Assembly (NCBI RefSeq): GCF_003334405.1
Contig: NZ_QOWM01000002.1
DNA length: 64,000 nt
From: Escherichia coli
GTDB lineage: Bacteria; Pseudomonadota; Gammaproteobacteria; Enterobacterales; Enterobacteriaceae
Direction: 5' to 3' (one strand)
This document shows positions 7,643-22,065 of the stretch, one piece after another. Below the pieces are notes generated by a model. The model did no database searches, was not told the origin of the DNA, and saw nothing but the letters and a program-made list of their open reading frames with translations. The translations under genes were made by a program, and so were the position numbers. Positions within the stretch are counted from its first letter, which is position 1; each line of letters begins with the position of its first letter.

Positions 7643-8398
7643 TTAGGTGTTAATTAAACAAATAAAGTTACTGTGCAGCCATAAAAATGAAGCCGGGATA
7701 GCGGTAGAGACTTTAGCCGTGAGAAAACGATCTGTCGCATCCTGCTTTCCTTCGCCAGTCACCAGTAACAAAACTTCGCGGGCATTGAGAATATCCTTCA
7801 GGCCTAAGGTGATCCCACGAGTCACGGGGCGACCCGCGGTTTTTAACATCTCATGTTGCTGTGTTCTGGCATCAAGTTGACTGATATGGCAGGCCGGTTG
7901 CAGGCTTTCTCCCGGTTCGTTCAGCCCAAGATGACCGTTTTTCCCCAATCCGAGAACGCATAAATCCAGACCGCCTTTGCGCGCAATCAGGTTCGTTACC
8001 CGTTCGCACTCTGTCTCATTTATCTCTTCGGAGCGAAAGCTGATGAGCTGGTCTTCACGTAGCCCCAGCGGCTGCACGATATGCTGTTGCAGGAAAGTTT
8101 CGCAGGTGCCTGGCATCGTTAATGGCAGATCCACCCATTCGTCGAGCTTCACGAAGGTGAGCTGGCTGACATCAACCTGCTGCTGGTGGATTTTTTCTAC
8201 CAGATAATGATACGTCAGTAATGGCGTGGCTCCGGTCGCCAGGCAAATCACGGCATTCGGTTTGCTACGGATCACGGCCAATAAATATTCGCTGGCACGT
8301 TCACTTAACGCCGTATAGTTTTCAACTTGCTGAAGGGTTTGCACAGGATGAAATTCCTTAAGTAAAGAGGCACCACCAGACGCAGTGCCTCGTTCCAT
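7643..8398 (-). CDS. agaI: Galactosamine-6-phosphate deaminase/isomerase (NagB family)
   Basis: 251-aa ORF with NagB-like motifs (…ICLATGATP…, …GLGKNGHLGLNEPG…); last gene of the aga locus. Confidence 0.85.
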   Translation of the reverse strand: MERGTASGGASLLKEFHPVQTLQQVENYTALSERASEYLLAVIRSKPNAVICLATGATPLLTYHYLVEKIHQQQVDVSQLTFVKLDEWVDLPLTMPGTCETFLQQHIVQPLGLREDQLISFRSEEINETECERVTNLIARKGGLDLCVLGLGKNGHLGLNEPGESLQPACHISQLDARTQQHEMLKTAGRPVTRGITLGLKDILNAREVLLLVTGEGKQDATDRFLTAKVSTAIPASFLWLHSNFICLINT

Positions 8399-9190
8399 TT
8401 ACAAAATGCCGAATGCGGAACAAACAATAGAGAGCATAAAAGTCACGCCGATTAACAGCACCGGATGCGCTTTTTTCACCCGCAGGAAGTAATACATCAG
8501 CAGGGTGTAGGCCATCGGTAAAATGTTCGGGAAGACTTTATCGAAGAAATCCTGCTGCAGCGCAACGCTGTGGGTATTGTCGATGGCAAACGATGTCACC
8601 ACGTTAATATGCACATACGAAGCGATCAGCCCGCCGATTACCGTGATCCCGAGGATGGTTGCCGAACGGGCAATCATCTGCGAGTTCTCTCGCACTTTAT
8701 CGATCGCCTTCACGCCGACTGAATAACCGACGTGGGTCCAGCCGACGCGCAGGAAAAAGATAAGCAGGTAAACGGCGAAAAATAGAATCGGCCCCAGCAG
8801 GTTTCCCTGGCTGGCAAATGATGAGCAAATTCCCGCCATAATCGGCAACAAAGTAAACCAGAAAATCGCATCGCCAATCCCGGCGATTGGGCCAAACAGT
8901 GCCACTTTGAGGCCTTTAATGGTGTCGCGGTTTTCTCCTTTTTCTTCCATCGAAATTAATAACCCCATCAGGAATCCGACCAGATTCGGGTGGGTATTAA
9001 TAAATTCGAGGTTATCTTTCATCGCCGCGCTTAAGCCCGGTTTGTCGTCCTTATAAATCTTTTTCAGGATCGGCAACATCGCCCAGGTAAAACCGCCCGC
9101 CTGCATCCTTTCGTAGTTAAAGCTCGCTTGCAGCAGCGACGAACGAAAGCCCAGACGGGTGATATCTTTTTTACTGATTTCAGATCCCAT
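8399..9190 (-). CDS. agaD: PTS galactosamine-specific EIID component
   Basis: Track ORF trimmed to internal ATG at 9190 (MGSEISKKDITRLGFRSSLLQASFNYERMQAGGF...), 263 aa, mannose-family IID signature; overlaps agaC end by 11 nt. Confidence 0.85.
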   Translation of the reverse strand: MGSEISKKDITRLGFRSSLLQASFNYERMQAGGFTWAMLPILKKIYKDDKPGLSAAMKDNLEFINTHPNLVGFLMGLLISMEEKGENRDTIKGLKVALFGPIAGIGDAIFWFTLLPIMAGICSSFASQGNLLGPILFFAVYLLIFFLRVGWTHVGYSVGVKAIDKVRENSQMIARSATILGITVIGGLIASYVHINVVTSFAIDNTHSVALQQDFFDKVFPNILPMAYTLLMYYFLRVKKAHPVLLIGVTFMLSIVCSAFGIL

Positions 9191-9983
9191 TGCTGTAGTC
9201 CTCTTCTTCATTTTTACTGGCAACGGGCTGCGGTTGCGCTTGCTGCCGGGATTTCGCATTGAAAAACTCATACACCGCAAAGCCTGCGCCCAGTACGGCA
9301 ACCGGCAACAGGTTGCTGACCTGGATGTAGCAAACAAACAGGAAACCGGCGATCAGGTAAGGGATATATTGCGCTTTGAACATTACGCGCAGCAGCAAGC
9401 CAAAACCAACGGCAGGCAGAATACCGCCAGCCACTTCAAAGCCGTGGGTCAGCCAGGCGGGCATCGCTTTCACCAGCGCCTGCATCGCCCCCTGTGCCAG
9501 GTAAGTACAGAGGAAAGCAATCACCGCATACGCTGAAGCGACGATGAGCATCGTTGTCCAGTTAAGCCGGGAAAACGCTGCCGTATCCGCCTCTTTCGCG
9601 CATTTATCGGCTTTGGTCATAAATAATGAGAAAGCGGAATAGAAGAACAGAATGACGTACTGCATTAACAAACTAAACGGCAGGCCAAGACCAATTGCTG
9701 TTTTGGCATCAACGCCCGTAGACCATGCAATGACGGTGGTCATCAGACCCGCCATAATCGGGTTGGGCGGCTGAACACCACCTGCAGGGGTTAATCCGGC
9801 GAAAGCCAACTCTGTCAGACCACCGGTAATTAAGCCAGTCTGAATATCACCGAGAATAGCGCCAGTTAGGGTACAAACGATTATCGGGCGGAATAAAAAT
9901 AAGGCTTCCAGCCAAAAATCAATCCCCAGAACAAAAACTAACGCCGCCAGGGATAATCCCTGAAGTAGGGTTATTTCATGCAT
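9180..9983 (-). CDS. agaC: PTS galactosamine-specific EIIC component
   Basis: 267-aa hydrophobic ORF MHEITLLQGLSLAALVFVLGIDFWLEALF..., mannose-family IIC; ATG confirmed. Confidence 0.85.
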   Translation of the reverse strand: MHEITLLQGLSLAALVFVLGIDFWLEALFLFRPIIVCTLTGAILGDIQTGLITGGLTELAFAGLTPAGGVQPPNPIMAGLMTTVIAWSTGVDAKTAIGLGLPFSLLMQYVILFFYSAFSLFMTKADKCAKEADTAAFSRLNWTTMLIVASAYAVIAFLCTYLAQGAMQALVKAMPAWLTHGFEVAGGILPAVGFGLLLRVMFKAQYIPYLIAGFLFVCYIQVSNLLPVAVLGAGFAVYEFFNAKSRQQAQPQPVASKNEEEDYSNGI

Positions 9984-10021
9984 TTTTATTACCTCAAACC
10001 AATATTAAGGCGATTTTAGAT

Positions 10022-10498
10022 TTAGTCAGGGATTTGTTCTTTTTGATCGCCAGGGACGTCCTGAATGAAAACATTCACGCCACGTTGTTTAATAAAACGT
10101 AAGTCCGTGAGATCCTGGTCATCGACATAAACTTTACTGCTGATTTGCTTTTTCCCTTCCGAGAAATGCATATTGCCGACGTTGACATCTTTCAGGTCAA
10201 TACCACCTTCTACCAATTTACGTACCGTTTGTGGCGTACGGCAAATCAGGAAGATCTTCTGATGTGGTGCAGCTTTGCCGATGACGTTAATGGTTTTTTC
10301 GATAGTAAAGAAACGAATGCCAAAGCCGTAGGTTTCCGCGGTAATACCCATTAATTTCTGTTGAATATCATCGTTAGCGACAACATCATCCACGACTACC
10401 AGCAGATTTGCACCGATGGTGGATGTCCAGGTCACGCCAACCTGACCGTGAACCAGACGGTTATCAATACGGGTTAAGAGAATATTTGGACTGGTCAT
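10022..10498 (-). CDS. agaB: PTS galactosamine-specific EIIB component
   Basis: 158-aa ORF MTSPNILLTRIDNRLVHGQVGVTWTSTIGANLLVVVDD..., mannose-family IIB with the phosphorylatable His motif. Confidence 0.85.
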   Translation of the reverse strand: MTSPNILLTRIDNRLVHGQVGVTWTSTIGANLLVVVDDVVANDDIQQKLMGITAETYGFGIRFFTIEKTINVIGKAAPHQKIFLICRTPQTVRKLVEGGIDLKDVNVGNMHFSEGKKQISSKVYVDDQDLTDLRFIKQRGVNVFIQDVPGDQKEQIPD

Positions 10499-10664
10499 TG
10501 TGTAATCCTCACCATAAAGTTGAATAATATAATTTTTTTAAATATATTATTGTTGCGATATTGTAGTGATGTATTTATTAAGGTTTAGTTATCTCCTTTT
10601 CCATTAAGGCACTCCCCGATATTAATCGGGAAGTACATTGGGATAAATCATAAAAAACTAATGA

Positions 10665-11537
<873 letters not shown>

Positions 11538-12692
11538 TTATGCCTGCCACGGATGAATGATTACGCCTTGCACCACGCGGTTAACGGTGCCACTGGCTGA
11601 TGGGGTATCCGGCGTATTGCCCATGTGCAGCGACTGCATCAGTGCAAACGTCTGGGCGTACATCAGGAAGCAAAATGCCTGCTCAACGTCGATAAAGTGA
11701 CGTGACGGTGGCAGGATGATATGTGGACCGGCAGCGACGATGTCGCTGCTTTCCGCGGCGATGGCGATTACACGCATTGCCTGGTTGTCACGGCGAAGTT
11801 CAGCCAGCAGATCAAGATCATACTGACGGGTGTAAGGGTGGCTGGAGACAAATACCACCACCAGCGTTTCGTCATCGACCAGCGATTTTGGTCCATGACG
11901 GAATCCGGTTGGAGAATCATAAAAGGCCGCCAGTTTACCCGCCGTCAGTTCCAGCACTTTCAGCGCCGACTCGCGTGCTGCGCCCTGTAAGCCACCGCTA
12001 CCGAGATAAACGATCCGTTTCCACGGTGCGTAACCAAACACACCTTCGCTGAAATCGCCCAGTGAGGTCAGGATCGCCTGGCAACGATCCGCCACGTCGC
12101 GGAAGGTTTGGCTGTTGATCGTCTCAGGTGCGAAAACCGCGAGGCAGCTGGCCATCATGGTGGTAATGCTGCTGGTCATCGCAAAGCCGCGATCGTGCGT
12201 TTCTGCGGGCATCAGCAGGGCAAACGCGTTATCGCTGTTGATCGCGTTTTGGTAAAGAGCGCCCGCTTCGTTGCAGGTGATCGGCAGGTGATAGCATTCC
12301 GGTACAAATTGATTTGCCAGTTCCACGGCTGCGACGCTTTCCGGGCTGTTGCCGGATCGACCGAAGGAGATCAACAGCAGCGGATGAGCTGGGTTCAGGT
12401 AGTCCATCGGATTGGTGACCAGATCGGTGGTCGGTACGGCGCTGAAGTTTTTACCGGTATGGCTGGCGAGCCACGGCGCGATGATGTCACCGATAAATGC
12501 CGACGTTCCGGCTCCGGTCAGGATGATCCGCAGATTCTCTTTGCGCAGTAACGGTTCAAGGAAGTTATTGAGCGCGGAACGTAGCGCGTCGATGTTGGTG
12601 AGTGAACGGATCCATGCGCGAGGCTGATGGCGGATCTCTTCTTCAGTCCATGTACCGGTTGCGGCGGCAGCAGGGGTGTAATTTTCTGGCAT
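11538..12692 (-). CDS. agaS: SIS-domain sugar-phosphate isomerase/deaminase AgaS
   Basis: 384-aa ORF with tandem SIS-domain features (…LTGAGTSAFIGD…); ATG confirmed. Confidence 0.9.
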   Translation of the reverse strand: MPENYTPAAAATGTWTEEEIRHQPRAWIRSLTNIDALRSALNNFLEPLLRKENLRIILTGAGTSAFIGDIIAPWLASHTGKNFSAVPTTDLVTNPMDYLNPAHPLLLISFGRSGNSPESVAAVELANQFVPECYHLPITCNEAGALYQNAINSDNAFALLMPAETHDRGFAMTSSITTMMASCLAVFAPETINSQTFRDVADRCQAILTSLGDFSEGVFGYAPWKRIVYLGSGGLQGAARESALKVLELTAGKLAAFYDSPTGFRHGPKSLVDDETLVVVFVSSHPYTRQYDLDLLAELRRDNQAMRVIAIAAESSDIVAAGPHIILPPSRHFIDVEQAFCFLMYAQTFALMQSLHMGNTPDTPSASGTVNRVVQGVIIHPWQA

Positions 12693-12734
12693 AACTCAAT
12701 CCTTAGTCTGATGAACTTGACGTCGGGCGTTGTC

Positions 12735-12870
12735 GCTTTCACTTGCCTTTCGTTTCATTTCACTTGGTGATGTCTTTCGTTGATTAAAATCTATAGAAAA
12801 GAAACTGAAAGTTCAATGGAGAAAAAAGAAATAAAACGAAATTTGTGATCGTTGAAAGAAAAGATAAAGG
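12735..12870. promoter_or_regulatory. AgaR operator-like repeat cluster upstream of agaS
   Basis: Repeated ctttcgttt / aaacgaaa-type motifs (ctttcgtttcatttc, tctttcgttg, aaaacgaaattt, gaaagaaaag) read in sequence; same motif family as in the kbaZ-agaR region. Confidence 0.45.
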
Positions 12871-12884
12871 AAGCAAAAGGGATT

Positions 12885-12970
12885 GCTGGATGCGGCGCAA
12901 ACGCTTTATCCGGCCTTGCGGTCACCAACTGTAGGTCGGATAAGACGCGTTAGCGTCGCATCCGACACCG
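12885..12970. repeat. REP/BIME element (two inverted REP units)
   Basis: gctggatgcggcgcaaacgctttatccggcc... and gtaggtcggataagacgcgttagcgtcgcatccgacacc match the E. coli REP consensus. Confidence 0.8.
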
Positions 12971-13042
12971 CTGCACAGATCAAAACGAAAGAAAAAGAAA
13001 GGCCTTACGGGGGAAGTGAAGGCCCAATAAAGGAGCAAACTA

Positions 13043-14176
13043 TCAAAACGAAGCTAATTGACCCTGAATCCAGATTTGTTGCACATGTAGCCCGCTATCC
13101 AGCGCAACGACGCTGGCGCGTTTGCCCGGTTTAAGCGATCCCAGAACACCATCAACACCCAGCATTCGCGCCGGATGCAGCGACGCCATATGGATGGCTT
13201 CCGCAGGCGTTACGCCCGTCAACTCGACCATATTGCGCACTGCCGCATCAACAGACAGCGTACTGCCCGCCAGCCCACCAGACGCGGTACGGACAACGCC
13301 ACCGTGCATCTGCACTTCTTCACCACATAACGTATAGCGACCATCCGGCATCCCAGCTGCCTGCATCGCGTCGGTGATCAGTACGATTCTCTCTTTCGCA
13401 CAGCAACAACACAGCGACATTGCCGCCGGATGCACATGATGACCATCGGCTATCAGTTCCAGCCAGGCGCGCTTGTCCGTTAATCCCGCGCCAACCATTC
13501 CCGGTTCGCGGTGATGTAAACCTGTCATCCCGTTATAGCAATGCACCAGGCCGTCGGCACCAGCATCAAATGCGGCGCGGGTTTGTTGCCAGGTCGCCGC
13601 GCTATGCCCCAGCATCACCCTTACGTTTTGCTGTTTAAGATGGCGGATGGCCTGCAATGCCCCTTCTTTTTCCGGTGCCAGCGCTACCACACGTAAGGTG
13701 TGCTGAGAAACGGCAATCAACTGATCCAGCTCGGCAATTTCAAGCTCGCGAAACAACTCCGGCGGATGCGCGCCTTTATTCTGCGGCGTGAAGTACGGTC
13801 CTTCGAGATAACTCCCCAGCACTTGCGCACCAGGTCCGCCGCGTTGGCAACGTTGAGCAATACGTTTCAGCGCCGCATGAATGGTATTAAGCGGCGTGGT
13901 TACGGTGGTCGGTAACCAACTGCCGACACCTTCGCGTGCCTTGTGCATTGCCAGCTTGTCGAGTACATCCGGCGCGTCATCCATTACATCAACGCCCGCA
14001 CCACCGTGTACATGGGTGTCGATGTAAGCAGGGCAGAGCAGTTCCGCATCGCGTTCAGTCACGCCCGCTGGAATCGGTTCGATTGCTGCGATGACACCGT
14101 CAGCAATACGCAACTGATGGTCATCGAGCCATCCCTCTTCAGTCAGCAGCCTTCTGGCGCGCAGAACGTGTGTCAT
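13043..14176 (-). CDS. agaA: N-acetylgalactosamine-6-phosphate deacetylase, full length
   Basis: Track ORF trimmed to ATG at 14176 (MTHVLRARRLLTEEGWLDDHQL...), NagA-like amidohydrolase motifs (…YIDTHVHGGAG…). Its ATG overlaps the agaF stop as ATGA. Confidence 0.85.
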   Translation of the reverse strand: MTHVLRARRLLTEEGWLDDHQLRIADGVIAAIEPIPAGVTERDAELLCPAYIDTHVHGGAGVDVMDDAPDVLDKLAMHKAREGVGSWLPTTVTTPLNTIHAALKRIAQRCQRGGPGAQVLGSYLEGPYFTPQNKGAHPPELFRELEIAELDQLIAVSQHTLRVVALAPEKEGALQAIRHLKQQNVRVMLGHSAATWQQTRAAFDAGADGLVHCYNGMTGLHHREPGMVGAGLTDKRAWLELIADGHHVHPAAMSLCCCCAKERIVLITDAMQAAGMPDGRYTLCGEEVQMHGGVVRTASGGLAGSTLSVDAAVRNMVELTGVTPAEAIHMASLHPARMLGVDGVLGSLKPGKRASVVALDSGLHVQQIWIQGQLASF

Positions 14177-14607
14177 ATTCCTTCCTCGACCGGACATTCT
14201 TCATGGCAGCGGCCTAACTCGTCCACCAGACTGGTCAGCCCTCGGTGTCCACACTCCAGCGCCTGTACACGGAATTCTTCACCGCTTAACCCTTCGCGCT
14301 CCAGCACCATCTCCAGTAGCAGTTGCAAATTGGTGCCGGTGATCACTTCACAGCCCGGTTTTTGCATCGCCAGCGTTGAAGCTACGCGAAACGGCGTGCC
14401 GCCCAGCAAATCCGTCAGAAAAACAATGCCGTCTTCACAATCCAGTTGGGCGATGGCCTCTTCAAGCTGCGATGTAAGCAGCGCGGTGCTTGAGGTTTCC
14501 GGAAAATCGATGGCGATAAACTGCGATTGCTCACCGAGAATTTGCTTCATTGCTTTTTCCATGCCGCTGGCAAACCCGCCATGCCCTGTCAAAATAATAC
14601 TTAACAT
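14173..14607 (-). CDS. agaF: PTS N-acetylgalactosamine-specific EIIA component
   Basis: 144-aa ORF MLSIILTGHGGFASGMEKAMKQILGEQ..., mannose-family IIA. Confidence 0.85.
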   Translation of the reverse strand: MLSIILTGHGGFASGMEKAMKQILGEQSQFIAIDFPETSSTALLTSQLEEAIAQLDCEDGIVFLTDLLGGTPFRVASTLAMQKPGCEVITGTNLQLLLEMVLEREGLSGEEFRVQALECGHRGLTSLVDELGRCHEECPVEEGI

Positions 14608-14624
14608 CTAATACCTCATTGTAT

Positions 14625-15503
14625 TTAAAGGAAATGGCAGAATTTACCGACGATGCCGAGAACCACGGTAACTGCAATCAGACGCAGCGGACTCCAGCCG
14701 CGGCGTACCAACCAAAACATGGTCAGGGTGTAGACCAACGGTAAGAAGGCCGGCATCAGTTTGTCGATAACATCAGCCTGTAACTTAACCACTGCGTCGC
14801 CCGCCGTGATTTCCAGCGTGGTGCTTAAACGAACATAGGTTGCCACCAGCGCACCGATTACCGTCATCCCAACGATAGACGCAGCATGGCCGACTTTTTT
14901 GGTATTCGCTTTAATCAGTGGAATCGCCGCCACGCCCATGCGGTAAGCATAATGCGCCAGACCAAAACGCAGCCCCAGGTGTACCACGTTGAACAGCACA
15001 ATAAAGACGACTGCGCCAAGAATGGAGCCTTGCAATGCCAGACTGGCTCCAATCCCGCCACAAATCGGCAGTAGCGTTAGCCAGAACATTGCATCGCCAA
15101 TCCCGCCAAGCGGCGCACCGACGGCAATTTTGGTGCTCTGAATACTGTTAACGTCCTGCTTAGAACGCTCCATCGCAAGGATAATGCCGATAACAAACGT
15201 CACCAGAAACGGATGGGTATTGAAGAAACCCATATGCCCCTTCATGGCGCGCGCCAGGTCGCGTTTATTAGTGTGGATCTTTTTCAGAGCAGGCAGCAGA
15301 CCGTACAACCAGCCAGAAGCCTGCATACGTTCGTAGTTAAAAGACGCTTGTAACAGCATGGAACGCCAGGCGACGCGGTTGATATCTTTTTTCGTCAGCT
15401 CCGCGCCAATGCTCTGATCTTCATACACGTTTTCATTGACGCCAGTCAGCAATGTTTCTTCGTTTTCACTGACGTTCGGCAGGGTGGTTTGATTAGATGC
15501 CAT
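14625..15503 (-). CDS. agaE: PTS N-acetylgalactosamine-specific EIID component
   Basis: Track ORF begins at a TTG; trimmed to first ATG at 15503 (MASNQTTLPNVSENEETLLTG...), 292 aa; paralogous to AgaD. Confidence 0.85.
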   Translation of the reverse strand: MASNQTTLPNVSENEETLLTGVNENVYEDQSIGAELTKKDINRVAWRSMLLQASFNYERMQASGWLYGLLPALKKIHTNKRDLARAMKGHMGFFNTHPFLVTFVIGIILAMERSKQDVNSIQSTKIAVGAPLGGIGDAMFWLTLLPICGGIGASLALQGSILGAVVFIVLFNVVHLGLRFGLAHYAYRMGVAAIPLIKANTKKVGHAASIVGMTVIGALVATYVRLSTTLEITAGDAVVKLQADVIDKLMPAFLPLVYTLTMFWLVRRGWSPLRLIAVTVVLGIVGKFCHFL

Positions 15504-16272
15504 CTTCAAATTCCTCTTTCTGTGCCGCAGGTTGAGTCGGTTCAGGAGATTTACGCAGCAAGTCGATCAGCGCCATCGCCAGCGCAGCGGCAGCAATAGC
15601 CAGCACTGGTAACTTGAGCCAGGCGGCGGCAACAAAGCCCAGGATGAAGTAGGGGATGTAGACGTTTTTCATCATGATTTTCAGCAGCACGGCAAAACCG
15701 ATTGCTGGCATGATGCCGCCCGCGACGCCGAGGCCGTCGATTAATCGTTGCGGCAGGACATCAATGATGGTTTTTGCATGTTCCGCGCCGAAGTAGATAG
15801 GCAGGAAAGCGCAGAGAAAATAGAAAATGCCGAGTGCCAGCAGTGCCAGATAGTTCACGCGTTCAATGCCGCGAGTATCGGCGTTCTCCGCCATCCGGTC
15901 GCAGCGAGACATCACGCCGGACATCACCGAGAACAGGAAGGTAATCCCCATCTGTACTGCGACAGCGAAAGGTACGGCGACACCTACTGCGACATCGGGT
16001 TTCACGCCAGTAGTAATGGCAAACGCCGTGCCGACGATAGTACCGATAATCACGTTAGGCGGCTGTGCGCCCGCCAGCGGGGCCAGCCCCATCCACACCA
16101 GTTCCAGCGTACCGCCGGTTAAAATTCCGGTATGCAGATCGCCAAGTACCAGCCCGACCAACGGGCCGAGGACCACCGGGCGGTGCATATGGGTTAGGCC
16201 GTTAAACATATCCAGGCCAGCGATAAAGGCGATAATGCCCAACGCAAATGCCTGCAACAGGCTGATTTCCAT
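15493..16272 (-). CDS. agaW: PTS N-acetylgalactosamine-specific EIIC component, full length
   Basis: 259-aa hydrophobic ORF MEISLLQAFALGIIAFIAGLDMFNGL...; paralogous to AgaC. Confidence 0.85.
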   Translation of the reverse strand: MEISLLQAFALGIIAFIAGLDMFNGLTHMHRPVVLGPLVGLVLGDLHTGILTGGTLELVWMGLAPLAGAQPPNVIIGTIVGTAFAITTGVKPDVAVGVAVPFAVAVQMGITFLFSVMSGVMSRCDRMAENADTRGIERVNYLALLALGIFYFLCAFLPIYFGAEHAKTIIDVLPQRLIDGLGVAGGIMPAIGFAVLLKIMMKNVYIPYFILGFVAAAWLKLPVLAIAAAALAMALIDLLRKSPEPTQPAAQKEEFEDGI

Positions 16273-16282
16273 GATGAATCCC

Positions 16283-16756
16283 TCAAAGTAATTTAAAGAG
16301 GTCCACAGCAGGCTCTGTCGGGACGCCCTGAACGAAGCATTCCACCCCAGCGGTTTTCAGGTCGTTAAATGCTGCGATATCGCCCGCATCCACAGAAACC
16401 GTTTTGGCGATTTGTTGTTTGCCATTGGCGTAGTGCATATTGCCAACGTTAATGCGATTCACCGGAACGCCACCTTTCACCAGCGTCAGGAAATCGGCGG
16501 GTGTTTTACAAACCAGCAGGATTTTCTGTCGATCGGCGGCGCGATGAATGTTGTCGATAACTTTTTGCAGCGTCCAGAAACGTACGGCGATCCCTTCTGC
16601 CAGTACCATTTCCATCAGGTTTTGTTGTACCGGATCTTCGGCAACCTCATCGTTGGCTACCAGCACCAGATTTGCCCCCGCAAATCCGACCCATTGAACG
16701 CCGACCTGACCGTGAATCAAGCGTTCATCAATCCGGCTTAAAACAATATTTGGCAT
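16283..16756 (-). CDS. agaV: PTS N-acetylgalactosamine-specific EIIB component
   Basis: Track ORF trimmed to ATG at 16756 (MPNIVLSRIDERLIHGQVGVQWVGFAGANLVLVANDE...), 157 aa; paralogous to AgaB. Confidence 0.85.
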   Translation of the reverse strand: MPNIVLSRIDERLIHGQVGVQWVGFAGANLVLVANDEVAEDPVQQNLMEMVLAEGIAVRFWTLQKVIDNIHRAADRQKILLVCKTPADFLTLVKGGVPVNRINVGNMHYANGKQQIAKTVSVDAGDIAAFNDLKTAGVECFVQGVPTEPAVDLFKLL

Positions 16757-16778
16757 AGCGTGTTCCTCTTTGTTTTGC

Positions 16779-18059
16779 TTATTGGCCTTCACAGGCTGTG
16801 TGGTACTGCGCCAGGATGTCCTGAATATGGTTGATAATGAGTTCCCGTGGCGTTGGCTGCAGCTCGCCGGAGCGAACTTTCACGTACTGCAGCGGCAGAT
16901 ACTGGCTGATCAGCGGCAGCGGAATTGGTGAATCCGCCAGATTACGTACCAGATGAGCGAAAGCGTCATCAATCTGGCTGTCCGGCCAGTAATAGCGCAC
17001 GCGATCCGAGTAGCTATAACCACGCGCCAGACGACGCGCGTTGCCGTCACCGTGGTAGTGGCTTTGCCAGTATTCCGGGCGGTCGAGCATCACGTCTTCC
17101 AGCACCTGACGCAGACCAGAACAGGCTTTCGCTGGCACCAGTTCTTCTTCAATCGCCGCCAGAGAGAACAGAGCTTCACGCAGGGCGAAGGTCAGCGCTG
17201 GGCCAACTTTCAGAATGGCAAAGTGGTCAATCACCAGCTGGCGCAGCGATTGCGGCGTTTGATAATCGGTAGAGTGCGCTTCGAAAATCAGCGTTTCGTA
17301 GTTTTCGACCATCTGGCTTAAGGCGCTCGCTTTGGCGGGCTGATAATCAATAACGTTGGTGTGATCGAATTCGACGCCGGGTTGAACCACCAGGGCAATG
17401 ATGCGTGGCCAGATGGCATTCAAACCTTGCTTTTCAAAGGCGTGACGATGGGCTTCCAGCGTGGCGCGGGCGGCATCCGGCGTGGTGACCGCCAGCTCGC
17501 TTAAGGTTTCATGCGCGCCGCCAGGTACCGGCACTTCGGTACCAATGACATACTCCAGATCGGCTTCGCCAAAGTGTTCAAGACAGGTTTCTTCCGCCAC
17601 TTTCGCCAGACGGGCGGCGCGTTCAGCCACGATGTCATCAGTTAAGGGAATCGGATCGTCCTGACAGGACATGCTGCAATCAAGGTGGATTTTTTTGAAT
17701 CCTGCCGCAACGTAGCTTTTAATCAAATCATCGGCATTGGCCATTGCCTGAGCGGCCGGCAGGTTTTGCCAGCGGTTTGGCCCCAGATGGTCACCACCCA
17801 GAATCAACGCATCCTGCGGGAAATTCAACGAGTCGGCGAGCTGACAAACAAAGCCGCGAAAATCGGCGGGCGTCATTCCGGTATAACCGCCGAACTGGTC
17901 TACCTGATTGGAGGTTGCTTCAATCAGTAACGGCGTTTGGTTTGCACTGGCGTAGCGGATTGCAGCCTCCAGCACCAGCGGATGTGCGGAACAAACGGCA
18001 TAAATTCCATTTGTTTTGCCCGCTTTGTGCTGTCTCACCATTTCTGTCAGATGTTTCAC
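16779..18059 (-). CDS. kbaZ: Tagatose-bisphosphate aldolase non-catalytic subunit KbaZ
   Basis: 426-aa [40 protein letters not shown]...; the first codon in the track is GTG, so the exact start is uncertain. Confidence 0.85.
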
Positions 18060-18093
18060 TTTCCTCTCCAGTTCAGATTACTGCGATATTAAT

Positions 18094-18300
18094 CTTTCGT
18101 TTTGTTTCAGTTGATACTGCGTCATGGTGAGATAAAAATAAAACGAAAGATAATAGTTTTCTGATCTGATTCACAAAAGAAACATAATGAAAGTCACTGA
18201 AACGAGAGTAGCTTGCGTCAATGGGCAAGGTGGGCTTGCATTTGCTTAATAGAAAGGCGTTAATAGGCAAAACGAAATGAAACGAAAGTTTTACGAAAGG
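18094..18300. promoter_or_regulatory. Divergent kbaZ/agaR control region with AgaR operator-like repeats
   Basis: Multiple ctttcgtttt / aaaacgaaag / gaaacgaaag motifs in both orientations between the divergent kbaZ and agaR starts. Confidence 0.5.
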
Positions 18301-18307
18301 ACTTACT

Positions 18308-19117
18308 ATGAGTAATACCGACGCTTCAGGTGAGAAGCGAGTGACTGGCACCAGCGAGCGACGAGAACAGATCATTCAGCGTCTGCGACAGCAAGGGAGT
18401 GTGCAGGTTAACGATCTGTCGGCATTGTATGGCGTATCTACTGTGACGATCCGCAACGATCTGGCGTTTCTGGAAAAGCAGGGGATCGCTGTGCGTGCCT
18501 ATGGTGGCGCGTTGATCTGCGATAGCACGACGCCGTCAGTCGAGCCATCAGTGGAAGATAAAAGCGCACTGAACACCGCGATGAAACGCAGCGTTGCGAA
18601 AGCTGCCGTTGAGTTGATTCAGCCAGGTCATCGGGTTATCCTCGATTCCGGGACCACCACTTTTGAGATTGCTCGTCTGATGCGCAAGCACACTGACGTA
18701 ATTGCGATGACCAACGGTATGAACGTGGCTAATGCGTTGCTGGAAGCGGAAGGCGTTGAGCTGCTGATGACCGGCGGGCATTTGCGCCGTCAGTCGCAAT
18801 CTTTTTACGGCGATCAGGCTGAGCAATCGCTGCAAAATTACCACTTCGATATGCTGTTTCTTGGTGTAGATGCGATCGATCTGGAGCGCGGCGTCAGCAC
18901 ACATAATGAAGATGAAGCTCGTTTAAACCGTCGGATGTGCGAAGTTGCGGAACGGATCATCGTGGTCACCGATTCCAGTAAGTTCAATCGTTCCAGTTTA
19001 CATAAGATCATTGATACTCAACGTATCGACATGATCATTGTTGATGAAGGCATTCCTGCGGATAGCCTGGAAGGACTGCGAAAGGCTGGGGTTGAAGTGA
19101 TTCTGGTCGGGGAGTGA
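18308..19117 (+). CDS. agaR: DeoR-family repressor of the aga locus
   Basis: 269-aa ORF with N-terminal HTH (…[28 protein letters not shown]…) and DeoR C-terminal domain. Confidence 0.9.
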
Positions 19118-19171
19118 GAAAGGATGCCCGCTGGTCAACACGAATGCGTTCGGCGGGCATTGTGAACACCA

Positions 19172-19636
19172 TCAATGGGTTTCTTCTGTTTCTCGGGTGA
19201 GGGTTTCCCAGTCGGCAGGAGGATGTCCTCTTTTTAACATTTTGCTGAATACGGTATAGGCATCTGTTTTTTTACCGTAGGTGCGCAGAGTGTTTTCATC
19301 GTTCATCCATCCCAGAATGATGACTTTCTCTTTTTCACTATAACGAAAGAAGAGACGATAACGACCAGCACCAAATTTTACCCGTGACCAGTCTTTATTT
19401 TTCCCAGAGCCTAACGACTTGCCATGACGGAATGCCGGTGATGATGGATTGACCGTGATATGCTCCTCAATCACTTTATGGACTACCGCCAATAACTTTG
19501 TGGCGGCTTTTCTCTGATAATTTTCAGGATCTTTTCCCTTTAATGTCTCGACTTCGGCAACTAAAGCGTCGTAGGTTTCCTGAAAACAGGGATGAGCATA
19601 TAGCGCCCAACCATTAACCCTTTGTGGAAAATCCAT
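19172..19636 (-). CDS. yhaV: Type II toxin YhaV (ribosome-dependent mRNA endoribonuclease)
   Basis: 154-aa ORF MDFPQRVNGWALYAHPCFQETYDALVAEVETLKGKD...; its start overlaps the prlF stop (TAATG). Confidence 0.9.
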   Translation of the reverse strand: MDFPQRVNGWALYAHPCFQETYDALVAEVETLKGKDPENYQRKAATKLLAVVHKVIEEHITVNPSSPAFRHGKSLGSGKNKDWSRVKFGAGRYRLFFRYSEKEKVIILGWMNDENTLRTYGKKTDAYTVFSKMLKRGHPPADWETLTRETEETH

Positions 19637-19971
19637 TATTCGTCGTCGCCAATCTCATCATCAATGTTGACGTCCATGCCAGCGACAAGTTTCTTTCCTT
19701 GTTGAATGTTGAATGGACGAGTTTTTTGCGGGTTGTTCTGGATATCTGCATCCAGAAAACGCAAAAATGCATTCATAGTATGATCCTCCTGTTCATCTCC
19801 CAGTCGGCACATAAATACTTGCCCACCAGGCAGAATTTCGTAATGAATGCTGTCCTGGCCTGGCTTCAGTTTTAAGGCCTCACGCACTGGCGCGGGGATA
19901 GTTGTTTGTCCGCGTATCGTGACCTTTGATTCAGTGGTCAGTACAGCGTGAGAGCGAGCATTAGCGGGCAT
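19636..19971 (-). CDS. prlF: Type II antitoxin PrlF (SohA), AbrB/SpoVT-like
   Basis: 111-aa ORF MPANARSHAVLTTESKVTIRGQTTIPAPVREALKLKPGQ... with an acidic C-terminus. Confidence 0.9.
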   Translation of the reverse strand: MPANARSHAVLTTESKVTIRGQTTIPAPVREALKLKPGQDSIHYEILPGGQVFMCRLGDEQEDHTMNAFLRFLDADIQNNPQKTRPFNIQQGKKLVAGMDVNIDDEIGDDE

Positions 19972-20070
19972 GATTCACTGTCCTTTTACAGCCTGTTTTC
20001 TGCTCAAATTATAAGCTTGAACTAAGGTAATGCAAATGCATTATTAATGGACGTGGGGGCTTTAAACAAT

Positions 20071-20097
20071 AAAAACATGGCACTAAGGCCATGTTTT
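20071..20097 (-). terminator. Intrinsic terminator after garD
   Basis: Hairpin catggc / gccatg with 6-nt loop, A-run on the plus side giving a U-tract on the minus-strand transcript. Confidence 0.55.
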
Positions 20098-20119
20098 GCG
20101 AGGGACGTTCCAAAAGAAA

Positions 20120-21691
20120 TCAGGTCACCGGTGCCGGGTTAAACACCGCCAGCTGGTTATGCAGCCCCCATTGATCCGAGAAGGTTTTCTTCTTCCCGCT
20201 GGCGACGTCGAGAATAAAGTGGAACAACTTCCAGCCCACCTCTTCAATAGTTTCTTCGCCGGTAGCGATGGTGCCCGCATTAATATCCATTAAATCAAAC
20301 CAGCGGTTCGCCAGCTCGGTGCGGGTTGCCATTTTAATGACGGGTACCGCCATCAGGCCGTACGGCGTACCACGACCGGTCGTAAACACTTGCACTGTGA
20401 TACCCGAAGCCACCTGTTGCGTGCCACAGACAAAATCGCTGGCTGGCGTCGCGGCGTAAATTAATCCGCGTTTAGTCGGGCGTTGACCGGGCGACAGCAC
20501 TTCAACAATTGCGCTTTTACCCGATTTAGCAATGGAGCCGAGTGCCTTCTCTACCACGTTTGCCAGACCGCCTTTCTTGTTGCCCGGCGAAGGGTTGGCG
20601 CTGCGGTCGGTTTTTCCCATATTGAGATAGTTATCGTACCACTCCATCTCCTCCAGCAGCCGTTTGCCGACCTCTTCGTTCACTGCGCGTGGTGTCAGCA
20701 GATGGATCGCGTCACGCACTTCCGTTACTTCTGAAAACATCACCGTTGCGCCGCAGCGCACCAGTAGATCAGACGCATAGCCAACCGCCGGGTTTGCCGT
20801 TACACCAGAAAACGCATCGCTGCCACCGCACTGCATACCAACGACCAGTTCTGAAGCCGGGCAGGTTTCTCGCTGCCGTTGATTCAGTTTTTGTAGATGG
20901 CGTTCGGCGATCTGCAAAATATCCTCGACCATGGACTGAAAACCGACATGCTTTTCATCCTGCAAACTGACAATGCTGGCGCTTTCTACTGGAATAGCTT
21001 GCACATCATCCGTTCCAGTCAGCAGGCGCTCAGGCTGCAACTTTTCACAACCCAGGCCAATCACCATTACTTCGCCGCCAAAGTTAGGATTCAGCGAAAT
21101 ATTGTGAATGGTACGGATAGGTACAACTGCCGCCGGTGCGTTAATCGCCACGCCACAACCGTACAAATGATTCAGCCCCACCACGCCATCGACGTTCGGG
21201 TATTTCGGTAGCAGATCGCGTTCAATGATTTTTACTACATAGTCCACCACGCCTGCCACACAGTGGACGCTGGTGGTGATACCGAGCAGGTTTTTGGTGC
21301 CCACGCTGCCATCGGCATTGCGATAGCCCTCAAAGGTGTATCCTTCCAGCGGCGGTAAGGGTTCCGGGACTTTGGTTGCCAGTGGCAGCGTGTGTAACGG
21401 CGGCGCTTCCGGTAGTACAACCATTGATTCGTCGATCCAGCTTCCGCGTGGGATTGCACGCACGGCGTAACCAATCACTTCGCCATAACGAATAATTTCA
21501 CCATTAGCCGGAATGTCCAGCAATGCGACTTTATGCCCCTGGGGAATATGTTCAATTAATTCCAGCCCATCCGGAAAACGCGTTCCTGCTTTCAGGCCAT
21601 TATCATTAACAATAATTGCCACATTATCTGTGTCGTGAACTTTTATATAAAACGCAGTTGGCGTTTCTTGTCTGATTTCGATGTTGGCCAT
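20120..21691 (-). CDS. garD: Galactarate dehydratase
   Basis: 523-aa [42 protein letters not shown]..., SAF/altronate-dehydratase-like architecture; divergent from garP. Confidence 0.95.
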
Positions 21692-22065
21692 TGTGCAATA
21701 TTCTCCAGCCAGGGGTTATTAAAATGAGGACCTGGTCTCATTTAAAAATAAATGACTTCATTGGGTGAAATAAGAATGTCAGGAGTTTAAACGCAGAAAT
21801 GTGATCAATGTCAATCATTTCAGGGATTGCAGTGCCGCCCGGTAAGGTAAAGCGCAAATCTGTGCTTTAGCGCGCAACCTTATGTGCATATGCTCAAAAT
21901 AATATTTAAATAGTATTAATTAAATTAGCATTTGCACAATGATTATTATTCTCGCGCTGCTTATACTAATTCCCGAGTTCATTGTCGTTACGGCATAAAT
22001 GAAACTCATAAATAACACCTTCCCCATAATAATAAAAATCAGCATAAGTACCCGAGGTAAATAAA

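Follow-up and report, generated by a model that had tools for sequence, protein, structure and literature searches.

The aga/kba cluster for the use of N-acetylgalactosamine (GalNAc) and galactosamine (GalN) is interrupted by a deletion in Escherichia coli K-12. The locus studied here raises the question whether it has escaped this deletion, and, if so, what its state says about the relation of the source strain to K-12 and about the amino sugars that the strain can use. The initial annotation of this DNA, made from the sequence alone, had read the cluster as intact and the host as a GalNAc-positive strain of a non-K-12 lineage.

Organization and integrity of the aga/kba locus

The whole stretch of DNA that was analysed, 64 kb in length and referred to here as the window, contains the complete aga/kba cluster of 13 genes (Table 1). 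For translation, the gene coordinates were taken from the RefSeq/PGAP annotation of a locally near-identical genome. The ORF list, the translations and the NCBIfam scans gave 13/13 genes without internal stop or interruption, and a search of the 13 translations for frameshifts and premature stops found none. This bears out the initial annotation, which had listed all of them as uninterrupted ORFs with a divergent agaR and had allowed for frameshifts missed by eye. The gene order is the canonical one, with agaR on the plus strand divergent from kbaZ-agaVWEFA, followed by agaS-kbaY-agaBCDI. The first minus-strand operon, kbaZ-agaV-agaW-agaE-agaF-agaA, occupies 18059..13043; the bounds that had initially been proposed are exact, with the agaA stop at one end and the kbaZ start at the other, although the strand had been left unstated. 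The second minus-strand operon, agaS-kbaY-agaB-agaC-agaD-agaI, extends over 12692..7643 and every gene in it is intact. The ATGA overlap of agaF and agaA was likewise confirmed at 14173-14176 on the minus strand, where the agaF stop and the agaA start read ...GGA ATA TGA / ATG ACA CAC..., and it suggests that the two genes are translationally coupled. An alternative, longer agaA ORF starts at 14197 and gives a 25-nt overlap; the ATGA start is the one chosen by PGAP.

The family assignment was based on an NCBIfam scan of 10 proteins (AgaF, AgaE, AgaW, AgaV, KbaZ, KbaY, AgaR, the AgaS family, AgaI and the deacetylase), and all 10 passed the curated cutoff of an aga/kba family or subfamily. The scores were 898.8 bits for KbaZ (NF012002, cutoff 707), 319.7 bits for AgaV (NF008508, cutoff 180), 410.5 bits for AgaW (NF040757, cutoff 300), 617.6 bits for AgaE (NF040760, cutoff 500), 219 bits for AgaF (NF040761, cutoff 130) and 465.3 bits for AgaR (NF040755, cutoff 260). 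AgaA passed only the generic nagA model TIGR00221 (290 bits, cutoff 225.65) and stayed below the NagA-specific NF008371, as expected of a NagA paralogue. Of the three remaining proteins, AgaC is the E. coli C protein, and AgaB and AgaD are 2 residues off each.

The window was also searched for the AgaR operator consensus, which is reportedly that of Ray & Larson 2004. Four matches were found in the 64 kb against 0 expected, all of them in the two aga promoter regions, and no match was present across the 64 kb outside these regions.

Table 1. Genes and promoter regions of the aga/kba locus (positions in the window)
Feature	Position	Strand	Description
agaI	7643-8398	-	AgaI
agaD	8399-9190	-	Gam-specific EIID
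agaC	9180-9983	-	Gam-specific EIIC
agaB	10022-10498	-	Gam-specific EIIB
kbaY	10665-11525	-	aldolase KbaY
agaS	11538-12692	-	GalN-6-P deaminase/isomerase
agaA-agaS intergenic region, agaS promoter	12693..13042		2 AgaR operator matches: 12744-12767, 12822-12845
agaA	13043-14176	-	377 aa; GalNAc-6-phosphate deacetylase; PGAP name nagA
agaF	14173-14607	-	144 aa; PTS EIIA common to Aga and Gam transporters; not in K-12
agaE	14625-15503	-	292 aa; PTS EIID (Aga); not in K-12
agaW	15493-16272	-	259 aa, full length; PTS EIIC (Aga)
agaV	16283-16756	-	157 aa; PTS EIIB, N-acetylgalactosamine-specific
kbaZ (agaZ)	16779-18059	-	426 aa, GTG start; first gene of the operon; non-catalytic tagatose-1,6-bisphosphate aldolase subunit
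divergent kbaZ/agaR promoter region	18060..18307		2 AgaR operator consensus matches: 18173-18196, 18268-18291
agaR	18308-19117	+	269 aa; DeoR-family repressor of the regulon

The cluster of E. coli C ATCC 8739 matches that of the window: the 13 genes recur with order and orientation unchanged, again as two operons with agaR divergent, and the 4-nt agaF/agaA overlap is annotated there as well. The window differs from E. coli C at 385 positions in 46 kb (∼99.1% nucleotide identity). AgaF, AgaC, KbaY and AgaR are identical to the ATCC 8739 proteins, AgaR being identical to the K-12 protein too, and the others are 1-4 residues off. This amounts to 14 amino-acid substitutions over the cluster, which include AgaD V252M and fall in AgaA, AgaE, AgaW, AgaV and KbaZ, among others. 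In O157:H7 EDL933/Sakai the agaW-agaE-agaF-agaA segment is full length as in the window and ∼98.6% identical; unlike the window, O157:H7 carries amber codons at agaC codon 8 and agaI codon 72 (PMC3668189).

Of 5426 complete E. coli genomes, 4945 (∼91%) have the segment deleted in K-12 and 371 have the K-12 junction, which leaves some 110 with neither of the two. Among the matches listed, 60 of 60 junction carriers (371 in total) were K-12-type laboratory strains or derivatives. The intact aga/kba cluster is the normal, ancestral arrangement of E. coli, and the locus, correctly recognized as intact, is an ordinary one; its presentation as noteworthy does not hold.

Endpoints and probable origin of the K-12 deletion

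Alignment of the window with MG1655 revealed that K-12 does not have the uninterrupted segment and lacks 2305 bp, which correspond to 13598..15902 of the window. Both agaE and agaF fall wholly within the deletion, agaW loses its 3' part and agaA its 5' part. The loss of agaE and agaF with truncation of agaW and agaA, which the initial annotation had attributed to K-12, is thus found in the alignment, and the literature describes K-12 as carrying this agaW'-agaE-agaF-'agaA deletion and as Aga- Gam- (PMC3668189, PMC9628945). In MG1655 (b3131-b3141), kbaZ, agaV, agaS, kbaY, agaBCDI and agaR are annotated at positions equivalent to those in the window; agaW' and 'agaA, in contrast, are pseudogenes, and agaE and agaF are missing. 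K-12 keeps the first 124 codons of agaW, beyond which the frame is lost and a product of 133 aa results, and this predicted AgaW' fusion agrees with the annotated 402-nt agaW pseudogene of MG1655. Only the 3' 555 nt of agaA are kept. The deletion removes the shared IIA (AgaF), and K-12 is therefore Aga- Gam-.

Direct repeats of 6 bp, GGTCGC, lie at the two ends of the deleted segment (13592-13597 and 15897-15902) and make the deletion endpoints ambiguous by 6 bp. An extended repeat at the deletion ends, GGTCGCNGCG, matches at 9/10 positions. When a longer repeat or a recombination site was sought at the endpoints, the exact match was limited to 6 bp, and the similarity flanking the ends, in register, was 25/86, which is the chance level. 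A site-specific element at the deletion ends therefore finds no support. The 2305 bp between the GGTCGC repeats were most likely lost by microhomology-mediated illegitimate recombination or replication slippage. Since the 6-bp microhomology is short and a third copy of GGTCGC is present within the deleted segment, at 15257, we infer this mechanism rather than assert it.

Relation of the source strain to K-12

When the deletion and a difference in repeat copy number (113 bp) were set aside, the window differed from MG1655 by 6 SNPs in ∼32 kb, with ∼99.98% identity in the flanks; positions 34861-64000 lay outside this direct alignment and were set against K-12 only indirectly. This compares with 385 differences in 46 kb for E. 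coli C, and the source is therefore a near-identical sister of K-12 and not a distant lineage. The designation as a non-K-12 lineage in the initial annotation stands in so far as the strain is not an ordinary K-12 laboratory derivative, the window being intact at the 2305-bp deletion junction that marks the K-12 laboratory lineage; it does not stand in the sense of a distant relationship. The source is thus not a standard K-12 laboratory strain, despite flanks that are nearly identical to those of K-12. At four of the six SNPs the window has the E. coli C allele, and the K-12 state at these four is derived, since window and E. coli C share the same allele.

Such close similarity could also be seen if a laboratory derivative of K-12 had had its aga locus repaired with DNA of an Aga+ donor, through transduction or recombineering. 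The few SNPs that separate the window from MG1655 would fit this origin, as would the ∼2 mismatches in 24 kb that separate it from K-12 GM4792. We nevertheless consider a repaired or otherwise engineered K-12 highly improbable. The SNPs relative to MG1655 lie to either side of the locus, scattered across 24 kb (3518 to 27566), four of them with the ancestral allele, and the repeat copy number in the rnpB flank is unlike that of MG1655. Natural isolates obtained from raw-milk cheese, swine, chicken and humans match the 2.3-kb segment and its flanking sequence at 100% identity, whereas a usual donor such as E. coli C is only 99.1% identical, and among the 371 carriers of the K-12 junction there is no sign of a repaired sub-lineage. 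The source strain is almost certainly a natural strain very closely related to K-12, with a complete ancestral regulon that was never deleted, and the window shows the pre-deletion state on a haplotype nearly identical to that of K-12. Whether the window also represents the exact pre-deletion aga sequence of K-12, the deletion having arisen between the two GGTCGC repeats in the K-12 lineage, be it in the original host or later in the laboratory, after its split from its closest natural relatives, is in our judgement evenly balanced.

Predicted use of GalNAc and GalN

The proposed pathway follows published work on E. coli C and O157:H7, and its gene content was checked in the window. AgaR would repress three promoters, PZ, PR and PS, via operators located between kbaZ and agaR and between agaA and agaS. 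GalNAc would be taken up and phosphorylated by a mannose-family PTS composed of AgaV (IIB), AgaW (IIC) and AgaE (IID), and GalN would enter through AgaB, AgaC and AgaD, with AgaF predicted to serve both the Aga and the Gam transporter as the sole IIA. AgaA, with NagA as a back-up, would deacetylate GalNAc-6-P, and AgaS would convert GalN-6-P to tagatose-6-P by deamination and isomerisation. Tagatose-6-P would then be phosphorylated by PfkA and the resulting tagatose-1,6-bisphosphate cleaved by KbaY/KbaZ.

The window was searched for the inactivating alleles AgaF G91S, AgaC Q8amber and AgaI Q72amber; all three were absent, and Gly91, Gln8 and Gln72 are wild type. An Aga+ Gam+, GalNAc-positive phenotype is predicted because the genes are intact and no known null allele is present. 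The prediction is a sound inference because the proteins are 0-4 residues off those of E. coli C ATCC 8739, which is Aga+ Gam+ (PMC3668189, PMC9628945), and because the known O157:H7 inactivating alleles are absent. The phenotype would also require ptsH, ptsI and pfkA, all of which are located outside the window.

A locus of intact appearance may still be phenotypically silent (Aga-) through a missense or regulatory change. There is a precedent in the O157:H7 spinach-outbreak isolates, in which AgaF carries Gly91Ser, a single substitution that abolishes growth on GalNAc (PMC3668189), and in the window AgaA, AgaE, AgaW, AgaV and KbaZ do carry several substitutions when set against E. coli C, as does AgaD with V252M, which is private to the window (the agaD 8437T allele is in no complete RefSeq E. 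coli genome). AgaF, however, is the E. coli C protein with Gly91 kept, the role of AgaD is restricted to GalN uptake, and AgaA can be dispensed with as long as NagA is present (PMC3668189). The natural isolate CFSAN061761 has all the substitutions other than AgaD V252M, and its sequence at the locus shows no further difference from the window. The operator matches are kept in the promoter regions, and the single intergenic SNP relative to K-12 at the locus has the E. coli C allele. A silent locus is therefore quite unlikely, and the Aga+ Gam+ prediction is retained. AgaD V252M, found in the window alone, may have an effect on GalN uptake and could represent a functional variant of the galactosamine PTS.

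The aga/gam regulon of E. coli C was reportedly described by Brinkkötter et al. in 2000. It has since been treated by Hu et al. 2013 (PMC3668189). Descriptions of the intact cluster, of its pathway and of the K-12 deletion date back to 2000, and all three are annotated in the reference databases; nothing about them is new here, and no new biological question is raised. The practical value of the results is modest: the strain is predicted to be able to live on GalNAc and GalN, two amino sugars derived from mucin, and for the textbook K-12 aga deletion the endpoints at base level and the microhomology are now given.

Gene content and control region

The six-frame ORF list of the window contained a run of minus-strand ORFs and a single plus-strand ORF at the locus (see table). 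When positions 11000-24000 were searched by megablast, each of 5,426 complete E. coli genomes gave a match, and the match to strain CFSAN061761 was perfect over 13,001 bp. The RefSeq gene names of this strain are kbaZ, agaV, agaW, agaE, agaF, nagA (corresponding to agaA), agaS, kbaY, agaB, agaC, agaD as well as agaI, with divergent agaR. Translation of the window at the CFSAN061761 annotation coordinates showed that 13 of 13 genes were uninterrupted and had proper start and stop codons, and the locus was thus intact as the initial annotation had claimed. The curated NCBIfam family cutoff was exceeded by all ten products scanned, among them KbaZ (NF012002, 898.8 bits vs cutoff 707), AgaW (NF040757, 410.5 vs 300), AgaE (NF040760, 617.6 vs 500) and AgaF (NF040761, 219 vs 130). 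The ATGA overlap between the agaF stop and the agaA start was likewise recovered, and the ORF list also held a longer, in-frame alternative for agaA. The span first assigned to the locus, 13043-18059, coincided exactly with the bounds of the first operon; its location on the minus strand had been left unstated. Directly downstream of agaR lies the prlF-yhaV type II toxin-antitoxin pair, which is annotated identically in K-12 and is known and unremarkable.

What we take to be the AgaR operator consensus, after Ray & Larson 2004, gave four matches across the 64 kb of the window, where zero were expected. Of these putative operators, two lie between kbaZ and agaR and the other two upstream of agaS. 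The lone SNP relative to MG1655 in the kbaZ-agaR intergenic region (K-12 G, window A) is separated by 18 bp from one operator match. As the window carries the E. coli C allele at this position, it is K-12 that has the derived base in this control region of the aga genes.

Coordinates of the features in the window
Feature	Position	Strand
Minus-strand ORF run	18059-7643	minus
First operon, kbaZ to agaA	18059-13043	minus
Second operon, agaS to agaI	12692-7643	minus
Plus-strand ORF	18308-19117	plus
agaF/agaA ATGA overlap	14173-14176	minus
Start of longer agaA ORF	14197	minus
Segment absent from K-12	13598-15902	
C>T change in agaD	8437	plus
kbaZ-agaR intergenic SNP	18155	
AgaR operator match near SNP	18173-18196	
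prlF-yhaV	19172-19971	
113-bp tandem repeat array	26735-27014	
yhaC differences	27493, 27566	

The K-12 deletion and its frequency

In the same megablast search, K-12-type records matched in two pieces that together covered only 82% of the query, and in place of agaW-agaE-agaF-agaA their annotation has a "PTS sugar transporter subunit IIC" and a deacetylase, both partial. Base-by-base extension from each side placed the breakpoints at 13597/13598 and 15896/15897, with a loss of 2305 bp, in agreement with blastn against MG1655. Both ends carry the 6-bp direct repeat GGTCGC; an extended repeat, GGTCGCNGCG, matches at 9 of 10 positions, and beyond it the similarity of the flanks was at chance level only (25/86 in register). 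When the deletion was simulated in the window, an out-of-frame AgaW' of 133 aa resulted, the exact length of the 402-nt agaW pseudogene of MG1655, in which agaA is also annotated as a pseudogene. The initial statement on the K-12 deletion was therefore correct. Brinkkötter et al. (2000) is cited by both PMC3668189 and PMC9628945.

The deleted segment was present in 4945 of the 5,426 genomes, at least 80% of it in 4931 of these. The K-12 junction, searched with a 300-bp probe, was contiguous in only 371 genomes, and among the junction matches listed, 60 of 60 were K-12-type laboratory strains or derivatives (e.g., MG1655, DH5alpha, C600, J53, DH1 and NCM3722). About 110 genomes had neither segment nor junction and presumably reflect other losses. 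TUM9757 matched garL/garP only and AST46 retained 20% of the segment beside an "amidohydrolase family protein"; in such natural isolates aga appears to have been lost independently. An intact locus is the ancestral state and the norm for the species, an already known and ordinary feature.

Predicted amino sugar utilization

The reference is E. coli C, shown by experiment to be Aga+ Gam+ (PMC3668189), and the Aga PTS has been studied in the C strain ATCC 8739 (PMC9628945). All 13 window proteins were compared with those of the ATCC 8739 locus: AgaF, AgaC, KbaY and AgaR were identical, whereas the remaining nine differed by 1-4 residues each. None of the function-abolishing O157:H7 alleles AgaF Gly91Ser, AgaC Gln8amber and AgaI Gln72amber (PMC3668189) was present in the window proteins. 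Together with the AgaR operator matches, this makes the Aga+ Gam+ phenotype predicted from the sequence well supported; it would also depend on ptsHI and pfkA, which lie outside the window.

The change in agaD results in AgaD V252M. The exact 61-mer around it was found in 0 of the 5,426 genomes, every match having at least one mismatch, and the change is either a sequencing error or a SNP that is private to the strain sequenced. At most, galactosamine uptake could be affected.

With the gene content verified in the window and the biochemistry taken from the literature (PMC3668189), AgaR would repress PZ, PR and PS. AgaV/W/E would import and phosphorylate GalNAc, AgaB/C/D would do the same for GalN, and both transporters would share AgaF as their EIIA. 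GalNAc-6-P would be deacetylated by AgaA or NagA, GalN-6-P deaminated and isomerized to tagatose-6-P by AgaS, not AgaI, and tagatose-1,6-bisphosphate cleaved by KbaY/KbaZ. Loss of the shared EIIA explains why K-12 can use neither GalNAc nor GalN.

Relationship to K-12

Apart from the deletion and one 113-bp tandem repeat copy 3' of rnpB, the window differed from MG1655 at six positions in ∼32 kb, and K-12 GM4792 fell short of a perfect match to 26000-50000 by about two mismatches. In contrast, E. coli C differed at 385 positions in 46 kb. With E. coli C as outgroup, four of the six SNPs are derived in K-12 and two in the window. The source is therefore a natural strain very closely related to K-12. 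An engineered K-12 with a repaired aga locus is unlikely, as the distinguishing SNPs flank the locus on both sides and the segment that would have been restored matches natural isolates exactly, not common donor strains. Haplotypes identical to that of the window occur in cheese, swine, bird and human isolates.

Two of the differences from MG1655, 73 bp apart, are nonsynonymous and lie in yhaC (T318I and T294P, MG1655 to window). At both sites the window agrees with E. coli C, which makes the K-12 allele the derived one; in the ATCC 8739 annotation yhaC is a frameshifted pseudogene. The repeat array, immediately 3' of rnpB, comprises 2.5 copies with 94% matches, and MG1655 is longer there by 113 bp, i.e., one extra copy. 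CFSAN061761, otherwise identical, departs from the window from 26750 on, and a tyrosine recombinase gene adjoins its rnpB. The rnpB 3' flank is thus variable among near-identical strains.

The initial observation is real and accurately described, and its interpretation is largely right. Its assignment to a non-K-12 lineage is overstated for a sequence this close to MG1655. The window displays the aga locus of K-12 in its pre-deletion form.
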